Shown: one piece after another, positions 6,494-28,299 of the stretch
Layout of the letters: each line of letters starts with the position of its first letter
Numbering within the stretch: the stretch's first letter is position 1
Assembly: GCA_951406725.2 (NCBI GenBank)
Contig: OX597832.1
Coordinates: forward strand, 48,732,001-48,796,000
From: Octopus vulgaris
Taxonomy: Eukaryota
Direction of reading: 5' to 3'
DNA length: 64,000 nucleotides
Notes under the pieces: model-generated
Told to the model about the DNA's origin: nothing
Seen by the model: only the letters and a program-made list of their open reading frames with translations
The model's database searches: none
Program-made: the position numbers and the translations under genes

Positions 6494-6534
6494 CCACAGA
6501 CTAGTTTCGGGGTATTTGCCCCTTTTCAATGTGG
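6494..6534 (-). ncRNA. Minimal type I hammerhead ribozyme, U3-A8 core variant
   Basis: Minus strand: ccaca UUGAAAA gggg-caaata-cccc GAAA CUAG UC ugugg. Stem I ccaca/ugugg; palindromic stem III ACUAGU. Lies in a (TA)n-flanked cassette at about 6322-6685. Confidence 0.75.
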
Positions 6535-6756
6535 TGTAGCCGAACCTGGCAGGCGTCGCTGCTGACCGTCTGTTCGAAGGTTTATTTACCTATATTCAGT
6601 GGAATACATCCACTGGTTTTCAAAAATAGAAATACTAATATTTCTAAATCTCTCTAAAGGAGACTACGGCAGCAGTACTGGATATTATATATATATATAT
6701 CAGAAATTAAAAAAGGAAAATACGCACACTTACATAGTTTTAATATAATTTTTAAT

Positions 6757-6791
6757 ATATCGACCGGTTTCGCTATCGCTATTCATGATAT
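6757..6791 (-). ncRNA. Minimal type I hammerhead ribozyme, A3-U8 core variant
   Basis: Minus strand: auauc AUGAAUA gc-gaua-gc GAAA CCGG UC gauau. Palindromic stem III ACCGGU. Lies in a TA-flanked cassette at about 6700-6840. Confidence 0.65.
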
Positions 6792-7167
6792 TATGTTTTA
6801 CTTATTTGAATATGTATTTTATTTTCCTTTTTTAATTTCTTATATATATATATATATATATATATATATATATATATATATATATGTATATATATATATA
6901 TATGTATATATACATATATATATGTATGTATATATATATATATATATATCTTTCCCCAGTAAATCATAAATCCGAAAGAGAAGCACACTCTAATTTATAG
7001 AGTAGTAGAGTATTTAGAGAATGGTAGTTACGCTCTGTTCGGGTTTAATCAGACGTGTGTAAAACTAAGAGCTTTATTGATGCGAAAACCTGGGTATCCC
7101 TATGAACTAGCCATAATTAACATCCTCTAAGTATATGTCATTTCGGATTATTGGATCAGGGGTTTTA

Positions 7168-7365
7168 ATGCAATAATTGAACGAATGAAATTTTGTAGGA
7201 AGAAGCCTGTGATTAGTTTATATATATATACAACTGGCAGAGTCCACGAAGGATAAAGCATTTTATGCAATAATTGAACGAATGAAATTTTGTAGAAGAA
7301 GCCTCTGATTAGTTATATATATATATATATATATACAACTGGTAGAGTCCACGAAAGATAAAGCG
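7168..7365 (+). repeat. Two tandem copies of about 95 bp, each with an internal (TA)n
   Basis: taattgaacgaatgaaattttgtag..aagaagcct.tgattagtt-(TA)n-caactgg.agagtccacgaa.gataaagc occurs twice. Confidence 0.85.
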
Positions 7366-7806
7366 TTAAAATGAAGAACGCATGTCCGAACTATAAAAGA
7401 GTATGAAGGGAATATTTGGGGAAACTTAAAATGGAAAATCTCAAAGAAACTTCGGCTCGAAAGTCAAACAGAAGCAAAACGAATGAAAGAGAAAGCTAAA
7501 AGGGAAAATGACAAATATGAGAAAATTAAGAAGTCCAAAGACACAAAATGTAGCATGGAAATTAAAACATAGATGTCGCCCAAATATAGGCATATATGTT
7601 AGTGTACTGATATTCAAATAGCAACAAGTTTGCTATCATCGTGATAACAGCTTTCACGAGTTACTGAGGGCGAAACAATCGACGATACAGTTAAATTTAT
7701 TATTGTATTGACACCATAAAACAGCGCTTTTATATAAGTAGCGGACTATATCACAGTAATTTCCCTTTGTATAACGGTCTTTTTTCATAGCGTTTTTCAG
7801 ATGGCC

Positions 7807-7869
7807 GGATAACCTAAGAGATGGTGTTGAGGATTTCCATCTCGGCACCCGAAACTCAGAGTTTTATCT
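7807..7869 (+). ncRNA. Degenerate type I hammerhead (relative of 16903-16962)
   Basis: ggauaa CCUAAGA ..ggug...cacc c GAAA CUCAGAG UU uuaucu. The 3' half is identical to the 16.9 kb copy; G5 is mutated. Confidence 0.55.
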
Positions 7870-8769
7870 TGGCTACCGAAAAATTGTCACATATTATTTT
7901 ATATATATATATATATATACACGTTATTATATATATATATATATATATATATATATATACACGTTTTGTTCTCTTACTTTATTATCATCTTATAATCATC
8001 TCATAATAATGACTTTTATGACTCGTATTACTACCTCAGTGAATCTAAATGTATTTATTTGTCTTTACCTGTCATAAATAGCCTTTTTTTTTATTTGCAA
8101 TGTGCATTTTCGTTGATTTTTCACATTTTACCCTTACATTTCCATGTGTATTTTATATTTTCTTTTCGTAACATATTTCTACTATATATATATATATATA
8201 TATATATATATATACATGTGTGTATGAATGCGTGTGCGAATGTCTATATCTGTGTTTGTCTCCCACCACCGCTTCACAATCAGCGTTGGCTTGTTTACGT
8301 CCCAGTAACCTAGCGGCTCTGCAAGAGGGTCTGCTAGAATAAAAGCCAGGCTGGTTTCAAAAAATAAGTACAGTGGTTGATTCGTTCGGTTAAAAATTCT
8401 TGAAGACGGTACACCAGCATGGTCGCAGTCTATTGCCCAAAACAAGAAAATTTTTTTTTAAATTATGCGTTTATAACAATATTATATAATGTTGCTTGCC
8501 ATAATCATAATTCTATATTGCATTGGGAAGTGCACACAGCCAAATTGTCTGGCAACGTATTGAAAAGAAAATGTAAAGAGAAACACGTCGTGTTGAGAAG
8601 TGTTAAAAAGACGTAAATAAACTATGAAATACTGCAAAAAATTAGCTGGTATGCTGAAGGAATAAAATATAATTATTGGATGAATATGGTGAATACATCT
8701 ACAAAGCAAGAAATAATAATATTCAATAGAAATCTTGTTCACATTTCAATGTAGTTCGACATATTAACA

Positions 8770-25243: not shown

Positions 25244-25375
25244 CTATCTGGATGAAATCCACTCAATCACACGCCAGATTTTTGTATTATATATTATATA
25301 TATTTATGAAAAAATTTCATTGTTTTATTGTACAAACACACACACACACACACACACACTCACATATATATATAT

Positions 25376-25480
25376 GTGGAAATCTGTGGATGCGTTTGTT
25401 TGTGGCGTTGTTATCTAACTCCTCCTACATCGTTTTATCGATTTTGATGAAACTTGACACGTGATTAGAGTTCATGTCTG
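25376..25480 (+). mobile_element. Helitron-like 5' fragment
   Basis: cgattttgatgaaacttgacac matches cgattctgatgaaacttgacac in the Helitron at 14790-15163. Confidence 0.5.
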
Positions 25481-25585
25481 GAAAACTAGTGACATAGTTA
25501 GATTGTTGAACAACTCGATAATAGAGCCCCAGGAAGGGATTCTTATATCTACTATATAAAACAAATATATTATTTTTAAACATCC

Positions 25586-26658
25586 AAGAGAAATAACCCA
25601 TTCGCCCCTAAAAGGGATCCTTATATATAACTAAGAGAAATAACCCATTCATGTTCGTAAATTATTTCGTATAAATCAAATTGATTATGCTTATTTCTTA
25701 GCTGTCATCACTTCCAGGCATTCTCTGGCCCGGAGCAGTAATCCTTTTTCATTTAAGTTTTCCAAAATTTAATTGTTTTCTATACTTACAGTTGAAAATG
25801 TCTCAATGACTGAAACCGGTACTGAAACGTGTTTTATAAAATCATTTCAGCATTTTCTACCTTGACTTTTTTCATGTTTTTGAAAGAAATGAGAAACATA
25901 TCTATAGGGTCATGGTTGGAACGCTTATCGTTATAAATCCATTCTATTCCGATTGACATGTTATATTCAAGATGTGTGTTTGTAGTTATCCGTTCGAAGG
26001 TTTGTTCCATTTACACAGAAAATGTCTTCTCCATTATAACGGCGTTTATTTAATAATGCCTTGCGTGTGGAAATGAGGAGATGGAATCTCAGAGAGCTAA
26101 TATGTCGGTTGTTAATCCAAGATAAAACTACTCTGATTACAATCAGATAAATAATTTTCGATCTTGCAGTCGCTCTGAGTTCTTTGTTTCTGTTTCTCAT
26201 GACTTTGGTATTCCTGTTCTTTTGATACGCAGAAATGATTTCAGTTGGAGGCCTGTTACGGTAAACTTGTTTCAGTTCTTCGCTCATCAGCCAAGAAATA
26301 CTTTCTCAAGAACTCTGTCAGTCTTTTCTCAGAGATGTTGAGGATCTAGCTTGTAGTGCTTTCTTGTTTTGGAATGATTGAGGAACGTTTACGGAGGCCT
26401 AACACTAACTGTATATCCTAAGGGAATATCGTAAGCAGATAGTAGATTTTTATGTTACAAATAATTTTGTTACATACTTTGAGGCTGTCTGTAACGAAGC
26501 AACGTTTCATGTTGGTGTTTTTGTCTTCTTGTGAGCTAATTGCTTTCTCTTAAGCATAATCAATTTGATTTATACGAAATAATTTACGAACATGAATGGG
26601 TTGTTTCCCTTGGCTATATATAAGGATCCCTTTTAGGGGCGAATGGGTTATTTCTCTT
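25586..26658. mobile_element. About 1.07-kb unit bounded by 108-bp inverted repeats
   Basis: 25586-25693 is the reverse complement of 26551-26658 with a few mismatches. The interior has a hammerhead and a decayed minus-strand ORF. Confidence 0.75.
25786..25827 (+). ncRNA. Minimal type I hammerhead ribozyme, U3-A8 core variant
   Basis: cag UUGAAAA u guc-ucaau-gac u GAAA CCGG UA cug. Palindromic stem III ACCGGU. Confidence 0.62.
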
Positions 26659-26909
26659 CCGCAGAAGAAAGCATTGATGTTTAGTCCTAGTGTAAACAAT
26701 AGTGTTAGTGAGAGAGTGAGAGAGAGAGAGAGAGAGAGAGAGAGAGAGAGAGAGATAGACTCCCTCCTTGAGATATGGCACTCCAATATCTTCTCAGTTA
26801 CTATACAATCACTTCCTGTATTCAATTTCAAGATGGCACTCTATGATAAATTCATGCTATCCCTGCTTCATTTTGTTGTCTGAAACTTTAGAGGAATGGT
26901 TAGAAGAAA

Positions 26910-27700
26910 GGTGTGTGTGCACCTGTATGTACGTATGCAAGTGTTGTGTATGTACGTATGTATATGTTGTGGGTGTGTTGTGTGCGTAGTGCGTGCTTTG
27001 TGTGTAGTGTGTGCATGGGTCTGTGTGTGTGCGAGTATATGTGTATGTGTGTGTATGTGCGTGTGTGTATGCGTGTGCGGGGATTTGTGCGTGGGTTGTG
27101 TCTGTGGAGTATATGTGCGTTCCTCTATGTGTGTGTGTGTCTGTGCGTTCGTGCCTGTGTGTGTGTATGTGTGTGTGAACGAGGGGTTGTGTGTGGAGGC
27201 ATATGTACGTTTTTTGTGTGTGTATGCACGTGCGCGCGCGTGTGTGTGTGGGTGTGTTCGTATGTGCGCATTTGTGTATGTATGTTTATGTGTGTGTGCA
27301 TTCCTGTACGTGTGTATGTTTGTGTGTGTGCACGCATGTATGTATTTGTTGTGTGTTTGCGTGTGCATGCGCGCATGTATGTGTGTTGTGTGCGCGCGCG
27401 TGTGTGTGGATTGTGTCAGAAGTATATGTGAGGTATATGTGCATTGATGTGTGTGCGCGTGCGTGTATGTGAGCATATGTGTGTAATGTATACGTGTGTG
27501 TGTGCGTGCGTGTGCATGTGTGTGTATGAGCGCGTGTGTACGTGAGTGTTTGTATGGAGTTGTCTAATGTGGAGGTATATGTGCATTACAGTGTACATAC
27601 GTGTGTGTGGGTACGTGTATGTGCATGTGTGTGTATGTGCGTGTGTGTGTGTGTGCGTGTGTGTATATGTGTGTCTGCATGTAAGTGTGTGTGTATATGC
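26910..27700. repeat. Degenerate (GT)n-rich tract
   Basis: Directly visible; source of the CV/HT pseudo-ORFs. Confidence 0.9.
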
Positions 27701-28213
27701 GCAAGCATAGACTTTATAACGAGTACGCATGCGCCACTTTTTGTTTTCCTATTGTACAATGTCGGAGTGACAGTTATTTCATTATTACACTCAGTTGATA
27801 TGAAAGAATGCACGTAATACTCAAGTGTTCTAATTGTTTCAGCTTATTTACTCGTAAAATATACTCCTTGGAGTAAATATGTCGACATATGAGCCAGCAG
27901 AACGAAGATGCTAAGTAGGTATTCTAGAGGAAGTATCCTCCAGTTTATCATTTATATTTCATGGTATTGTGTAACTACGGACATTGCTGACTTAACTCAA
28001 CTGGTGTTTGTTTTGACAAACAGAATTTTCTTAAGGTCAAAGTGGCATCTTTACACACACACATGCACGCACACACACATACACACACACATATATGTAT
28101 ATATAAATGTATTCATTATATATATTATTATATATATTATATATATTATATTATATTATATATATATTATATATATATATAATTTAATATTTTTAATATT
28201 TAATATTGTTGGA

Positions 28214-28299
28214 GTCCCATGCTGATGAAGAAAATGGTTGGGTAAAGTATAATTCTATATTATTTATACCGATCAAATTCCGAAACGCGTACATGGGAC
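28214..28299 (+). ncRNA. Type I hammerhead ribozyme, canonical core
   Basis: gucccaug CUGAUGA a gaa..ugguugg...ccgauca..uuc c GAAA CGCG UA caugggac. Perfect 8-bp stem I; palindromic stem III ACGCGU. Cassette at about 28200-28475 lies in TA-rich DNA. Confidence 0.88.

Follow-up and report, generated by a model that had tools for sequence, protein, structure and literature searches.

A series of hammerhead ribozyme motifs, set in short non-coding cassettes among (TA)n microsatellites, lies within a 64-kb window of the Octopus vulgaris genome (contig OX597832.1, positions 48,732,001 to 48,796,000; 36% GC and rich in (TA)n), taken from an assembly of 2.8 Gb in 227 contigs. The cassettes are very probably 3' ends that carry the hammerheads of nine repeat families. 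Four of the families are linked to Penelope-like elements (PLEs), four lack open reading frames (ORFs), and all were likely inserted into (TA)n by Penelope-type target-primed reverse transcription. No host gene was found in the window, where the 42 frames of 130 or more codons, not scanned against Pfam, are nearly all repeat-derived. An earlier note, made from the letters alone, had listed eleven type I motifs and a decayed twelfth, and the positions of all eleven were confirmed. The cassettes are given below in window coordinates; the pseudo-long terminal repeats of PLEs are abbreviated pLTRs.

6322..6687, minus strand: F6494, an ORF-less 361-nt unit with short terminal redundancy; hammerhead 6494-6534 with a U3-A8 core
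6700..6840, minus strand: F6757, apparent 3' end of a Neptune-like PLE; hammerhead 6757-6791 with an A3-U8 core and a 2-bp stem II
7747..7899, plus strand: apparent older, decayed Hydra-clade pLTR copy, 84% to F16903; hammerhead 7807-7869, G5 changed to U
9489..9737, minus strand: F9655, an ORF-less unit of about 555 nt, 5'-truncated; hammerhead 9655-9711, U3-A8, one stem I mismatch
16107..16290, minus strand: tail-only fragment, 85% to F9655 and 82% to F28214; hammerhead not retained
16813..17068, plus strand: F16903, apparent Hydra-clade pLTR end with an 87-nt inverted 5' copy (16813-16899); hammerhead 16901-16964, CCGAAGA (C4)
17117..17400, plus strand: F17157, an older family in which no ORF or unit length was found; hammerhead 17157-17249, canonical core, stem II damaged
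18265..18490, minus strand: F18411, apparent 3' end of a Neptune-like PLE, the ORF link coming from one locus; minimal hammerhead 18411-18454, interrupted by 8 inserted nt
24334..25282, minus strand: F24628, 1.76 tandem copies of an ORF-less 535-nt unit; hammerheads 24627-24709 and 25162-25244
25746..25871, plus strand: F25786, apparent 3' end of a Neptune-like PLE, no TA flank here; hammerhead 25789-25824, U3-A8, 3-bp stem I
28181..28489, plus strand: F28214, an ORF-less unit of about 593 nt, 5'-truncated; hammerhead 28214-28299, canonical core
53065..53142, minus strand: decayed hammerhead-like motif of an old family, CCGAGGA ... GAAACAGCTGTC, stem I broken

The motifs were scored with a strict type I descriptor (Watson-Crick pairing at 3-8, Y4 G5 A6, A9 and GAAAC-palindrome-GUH), tuned post hoc on the window hits, and compared with 200 local dinucleotide shuffles in which microsatellites were kept. 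Eight of the eleven passed with a stem I of at least 3 bp and seven with at least 4 bp, against a shuffle mean of 0.005 (maximum 1), and no window hit left positions 3 and 8 unpaired. A looser descriptor that stays close to the earlier note's wording returned nine hits at a stem I of at least 4 bp, including one double-counted site and one extra, chance-like site at 43556, against 0.64 ± 0.69 in 100 shuffles. Motif density therefore exceeded that of shuffled sequence with both descriptors.

The claim that each motif follows the type I pattern held for the eight that passed the strict descriptor and failed for three as single copies: 7807 carries U at position 5 (CCTAAGA, outside NNGANNA), 9655 a mismatch in stem I and 17157 a damaged stem II. 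The commonest cores of their families are intact, and the three are damaged copies. The motif at 53065 is indeed decayed, being a copy of an old family with four weak hits besides itself. Stem sequences are mostly unrelated, as had been said, except that 9655 and 28214 have a common 3' segment (65 nt, 75%). A recognition tail common to all families was sought and rejected: only F9655, F28214 and the fragment at 16107 align, with F24628 a look-alike by eye only. The description of nearly all cassettes as bounded by (TA)n was overstated for the window, where (TA)5 lies within 300 nt on both sides of 5/11 motifs (random 23%) and on the 3' side of 8/11 (random 39%), with no TA bounding at 25786. 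Short fragments of F17157 and F18411 without a ribozyme lie at 14217-14269 and 54970-55029, respectively.

Genome searches, with about 40 candidates scored and 20-30 loci retrieved per family, resolved the cassettes into nine dispersed repeat families, so that the expected multicopy families were found for every cassette; the 855-3540 first-look candidates of each family are not copy numbers. The strict descriptor gave 7 hits (stem I of at least 4 bp) in the 64-kb window. It gave 4 in a set of seven 10-kb stretches (70 kb) taken at round coordinates and 11 in flanking sequence totalling 397.8 kb, and the hits of these two sets come from many further families. At such densities the window is no more than modestly enriched, and a special local cluster was ruled out. 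The dense motif population is thus present as described but is genome-wide rather than a feature of this locus. Extrapolation gives about 77,000-160,000 motifs in the genome, with wide error (Poisson range about 44,000-410,000). Of the nine families, one is linked to Hydra-clade and three to Neptune-like PLEs, four are ORF-less, and the ninth is the older F17157.

Cores and stems are those of type I hammerheads, with deviations at C4 in F16903 and U6 in most sampled F18411 copies. In all nine families the commonest core is Watson-Crick paired at 3-8: five have C-G, three U-A and one A-U. Over 237 loci the position was paired in 224 of 231 descriptor hits and unpaired in 7, although copies are not independent. 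Stem III is palindromic in eight families and near-palindromic in the ninth. F16903 has C4 in 27/29 cores (CCGAAGA), while the C4 of the window F24628 pair (24628/25163) is nearly private, 27/29 other copies having U4. C4 cores (CCGANGA) also occur in several unrelated families of the flanks (L131, L027, L223, L179, L093) despite CpG decay.

The A3-U8 core of F6757 has 309 exact matches genome-wide, and in only two further matches is position 3 a different base, with U8 retained in both. Because sister Neptune-like families (endonuclease, EN, 67% and about 41-46% identical) carry U3-A8 with the same stem III, A3-U8 looks like a double compensatory swap. The unusual core is predicted to cut. 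An alternative register with an inserted base was discarded, as it yields a C3-U8 mismatch. U3-A8, U4C and U10.1-U11.1 have already been recorded as natural variants (PMC3088659; PMC4209133). No natural A3-U8 was found in the literature searched, including section 8 of PMC3088659, which gave U3-A8 only; this is a weak absence given partial coverage of the literature.

Long copies with reverse transcriptase (RT) and GIY-YIG frames, which the earlier note had proposed looking for, were found. In F16903, locus L092 has a pLTR-ORF-pLTR arrangement with hammerheads 2568 nt apart and (TA)n at the end, and L094 contains an open frame of 634 codons that includes RT, a CxCx5C linker and a C-terminal EN. 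Translated F16903 frames contain RWK and DKT (both also in L092), the CxCx5C linker and CxxC/CxH, with no CCHH, a combination that fits the published definition of the Hydra clade (PMC8557442). The RT and then a C-terminal GIY-YIG-type EN lie between pLTRs within a unit under 3 kb, and (TA)n adjoins 29/30 3' ends of F16903/7807. By these motifs, and by likeness by eye to Hydra-1_Obim of Octopus bimaculoides, F16903/7807 is assigned to the pLTR of a Hydra-clade PLE. Hydra-1_Obim, listed with (TA)n targets and a canonical hammerhead in the supplement of Craig et al. 2021 (PMC8557442), agrees with F16903 in the C-terminal EN, RWK, DKT, CxCx5C, CxxC and CxH motifs, a unit of about 2.5 kb, (TA)n, the hammerhead stem III ACTC-N-GAGT and a protein clearly similar by eye. 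It differs in its other stems and in its core (CUGAAGA, against CCGAAGA with C4 in F16903), marking a distinct family, and the clear pLTRs of F16903 have no counterpart in what was seen of Hydra-1_Obim. A degraded Hydra-type PLE frame covering the thumb/linker region lies at 57859-58209 on the minus strand (tblastn E about 2e-6). Frames at L004 472-1515 and L243 5192-6314 (both minus strand) belong to a further Hydra-like PLE family (about 40% to L094), for which a hammerhead was not located.

At six distinct loci, a frame with a C-terminal GIY-YIG (Neptune-like EN) is followed after 301-332 nt by the F6757 hammerhead. The hammerhead of F25786 lies 629-659 nt behind a Neptune-like EN at three loci, and that of F18411 about 700 nt behind such a frame at one locus. 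The frames have a CX4CxxC linker, CCHH and, at the C-terminus, a GIY-YIG, and all those seen are 5'-truncated or broken. These families therefore appear to be ends of Neptune-like PLEs, of either Neptune or Nematis type. With the published Neptune/Nematis elements (Cervera and de la Pena 2014, PMC4209133, in the passages available) they have in common the RT, the linker, the C-terminal GIY-YIG with CCHH, a minimal type I hammerhead with palindromic stem III in the 3' repeat, single truncated copies, inverted pairs, the U3-A8 variant and diversity within one genome; no mention of an A3-U8 core with a 2-bp stem II, as in F6757, was found in those passages. A further Neptune-like frame of 486 codons, followed by a U3-A8 hammerhead, belongs to a family outside the window set (L242 4398-6034, minus strand). 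In the window, 108-nt inverted repeats (25586-25693 and 26551-26658, 96%) surround 857 nt that include the F25786 end.

The hint that Naiad or Chlamys elements were involved was not borne out: EN is C-terminal in every linked frame and hammerheads are present, and the hint is inapplicable because Naiads and most Chlamys lack canonical hammerheads (PMC8557442). Those clades, of which Naiads are listed for octopus, resemble the present families in microsatellite bias and in tandem and inverted insertions, and differ in their N-terminal EN.

Four families close on themselves as units without a frame: F6494 at about 361 nt (19/25 loci), F9655 at 553-560 nt (6/25), F28214 at 590-602 nt (11/30) and F24628 as a 535-nt unit with spacings of 515-538 nt and arrays of up to about five units. 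Two full hammerheads in tandem were seen only in F24628 and once in F6494. As ORF-less head-to-tail units with one hammerhead each, the four fit non-LTR retrozymes and are likely non-coding PLE passengers. Like metazoan retrozymes (Cervera and de la Pena 2020, PMC7229834; bioRxiv 10.64898/2026.07.22.740005), they are ORF-less, carry one type I hammerhead per unit, are tandem or monomeric and AT-rich, and occur alongside PLEs, with lengths inside the reported 51-972 nt. In contrast to them, three of the octopus units (535-595 nt) exceed the typical size of about 300 nt, and the octopus units, known here from DNA, are for the most part scattered as 1-2-mers, have inverted 5' copies of the PLE type and are anchored in TA at their ends. 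The retrieved passages of these two sources contain no octopus retrozymes. No autonomous partner for the four families or F17157 was found among 24-29 loci per family; the PLE frames near L004 and L243 were considered and set aside as separate insertions with other 3' ends. Three F28214 copies with common flanks (L009, L011, L014; C12:34.16-34.36 Mb) are segmental duplicates, not separate insertions.

For F24628, 26 loci were compared after five overlapping loci had been dropped. Divergence within arrays had a median of 0.5% (32 pairs), compared with 2.6% between loci (1003 pairs). Contigs from four sequencing runs (three guessed to be RNA, one probably DNA) contain the F24628 unit and its head-to-tail joint, a configuration in which circles and genomic tandems are indistinguishable.

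The adjacency to (TA)n that the earlier note had proposed comparing with chance is clear at the 3' ends: the point where homology stops downstream adjoins (TA)4+ in 174/230 copies, window copies included, against 315/8797 random points (3.6%), with family values of 12/25, 20/20, 29/30, 21/25, 17/25, 15/20, 25/30, 14/25 and 21/30. These ends cluster at a few points per family (+35/+107; +60/+118; +289/+696; +185/+285), and all 230 lie at least 35 nt past the cleavage site (range 35-700 nt). In longer natural copies, the 11 usable preferred end points are within 3 nt of a 3-6-nt TA alternation, and an alternation of at least 4 nt is present at 7/11 (background 13-26%), a modest signal for microhomology priming. 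Copies are 5'-truncated, often with an inverted partner; hammerhead-bearing inverted partners occur at 1-19 loci per family (19/29 in F16903), and inverted 5' partners at 3-7 of 24-29 loci in each ORF-less family.

The proposal of a multi-family, TA-targeting, ribozyme-bearing retroelement system is thus borne out by the shuffles, the multicopy families, the copies with RT and GIY-YIG frames and the (TA)n 3' ends. In the favoured mechanism, the GIY-YIG endonuclease would nick (TA)n and the freed 3' end would prime RT inside the RNA at short UA-alternating stretches. The template would be an RNA unbroken at the ribozyme: a tandem transcript left uncut, or else a circle closed by re-ligation. 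Copies could thus exceed one unit, and early termination or template switching may give rise to truncated and inverted copies. The hammerheads would cut weakly, as dimers through the palindromic stem III and perhaps helped by protein; cutting would trim tandem transcripts or make monomer circles and is probably dispensable for the insertion step. ORF-less units would borrow RT and EN in trans. Palindromic stem III is described as allowing two hammerheads to cut as a dimer (PMC4209133; PMC6765202), and the lizard PLE Poseidon_Ac showed in vitro internal initiation at about two fixed 3' points downstream of the hammerhead, an uncut RNA template and dispensable, protein-assisted cleavage (Frangieh et al. 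2024, PMC11167929).

Several results weigh against this explanation. The masking of TA runs in end mapping favours ends at TA, and the AC-rich start site of Poseidon_Ac is not homologous to its target, unlike the octopus ends, which coincide with short TA-alternating stretches (PMC11167929). Pfam matches to RT and GIY-YIG were all below cut-off (GIY-YIG E 0.004-0.03), the Hydra frame had neither, and a PDB search gave no useful match for it. Several F24628 arrays differ by 2-4% internally and an equally close unit often lies elsewhere, which leaves a circular template as no more than a candidate. Among F18411 copies, those closest to the window copy mostly carry A6 changed to U (CTGTCGA 9/19, CTGTTGA 4/19); a probably crippled core has spread, a sign that cutting is not always needed. 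Core columns do speak for the explanation, varying in 46/2336 cases (2.0%) against 531/13926 elsewhere (3.8%), but the difference is uncorrected for base composition and absent in F18411 and F16903. Eight of nine Xenopus retrozyme dimers stayed uncut in vitro (bioRxiv 10.64898/2026.07.22.740005). Folding against shuffles gave z below -2 in only 3/11 motifs. Among the best 150 of 459 Rfam matches for the whole window no hammerhead appeared, and three cassette-sized scans likewise returned zero hammerhead matches. To our knowledge, the Rfam hammerhead models miss minimal PLE variants.

The silence of Rfam and the post hoc tuning of the strict descriptor could be taken to mean chance motifs in AT-rich, repeat-rich DNA, a reading with practically no probability left: the loose descriptor also stands far above shuffles, the window has no unpaired 3-8 hit, and the motifs sit at fixed places in PLE ends. 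A more serious alternative, possible but clearly less probable than the favoured mechanism, keeps the PLE and retrozyme ends as real and makes the hammerheads mostly passengers, whose role is limited to a few master copies or to circular RNA, with A3-U8, C4 and U6 weak or dead. The prevalence of U6 in sampled F18411 copies and the passage of all mapped 3' ends beyond the cleavage site agree with it, and insertion in vitro was undiminished by hammerhead mutants (PMC11167929) and Naiads thrive without hammerheads (PMC8557442); the 98-100% identity of F6757 copies, a young family, reflects descent rather than selection. Selection on the ribozyme is favoured by the 3-8 pair being kept through three Watson-Crick states across families, by the double change that separates F6757 from its U3-A8 sisters, by stems and palindromes being kept in unrelated sequences, and by core columns varying about half as much overall.

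Two further alternatives concern the manner of spread. TA tracts might have been made by insertion, through RT slippage or tail addition, instead of being pre-existing targets, and ends at internal TA-like stretches could seed such slippage. This is improbable, as both ends are often TA-flanked, some copies end without TA, and a (TA)n preference tied to the linker Zn-finger is reported for Hydra elements (PMC8557442). Less probable still is that ORF-less units spread as DNA, by satellite-like tandem duplication, gene conversion or rolling-circle DNA transposition. Near-identical neighbours in arrays of up to about five units and the head-to-tail joint in the probable DNA run would suit it, whereas dispersal over many chromosomes mostly as 1-2 units, variable 5' truncation with inverted 5' partners, and fixed TA-abutting 3' ends like those of ORF-linked families oppose it.

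Other repeats surround the cassettes. A TA-abutting block at 17448-17740 is 75% like sequence downstream of some F6757 copies and is probably the end of another abundant repeat. The TA-flanked block at 53468-53671 has inverted arms (71 nt, 99%), as is typical when an insertion is truncated and inverted, and no hammerhead was seen in it. Repeats at 9105-9450, 9760-10090, 19070-19300 and 28515-28770 recur in many sampled loci, often beside (TA)n, and are presumably SINE-like.

The system itself is already described: for octopus, a Hydra PLE that bears a hammerhead and targets (TA)n has been published. What novelty remains lies in the A3-U8 family, the large ORF-less units and a possible homology-primed start. 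A bolder account can be offered tentatively, and we would sooner doubt than accept it in full: the genome would hold some 10^5 hammerheads in dozens of families with three 3-8 Watson-Crick states, including the first natural active A3-U8 (a young family of 300+ copies), and the 535-595-nt units would be circular RNAs, copied by rolling circle from nicked (TA)n annealing to internal UA stretches, with a homology-primed start unlike that of the PLE studied in vitro.

As a resource, this single genome combines many independent hammerhead families, among which the core has been swapped naturally (A3-U8, U3-A8, C4, U6), with tandem ORF-less units of young age and a Hydra-clade frame that is nearly intact. 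The role of the hammerhead in PLEs, the choice of (TA)n and the choice of start point thereby become directly testable. Much of what looks like interrupted microsatellite in such genomes consists of unannotated retroelement ends that Rfam leaves unflagged.

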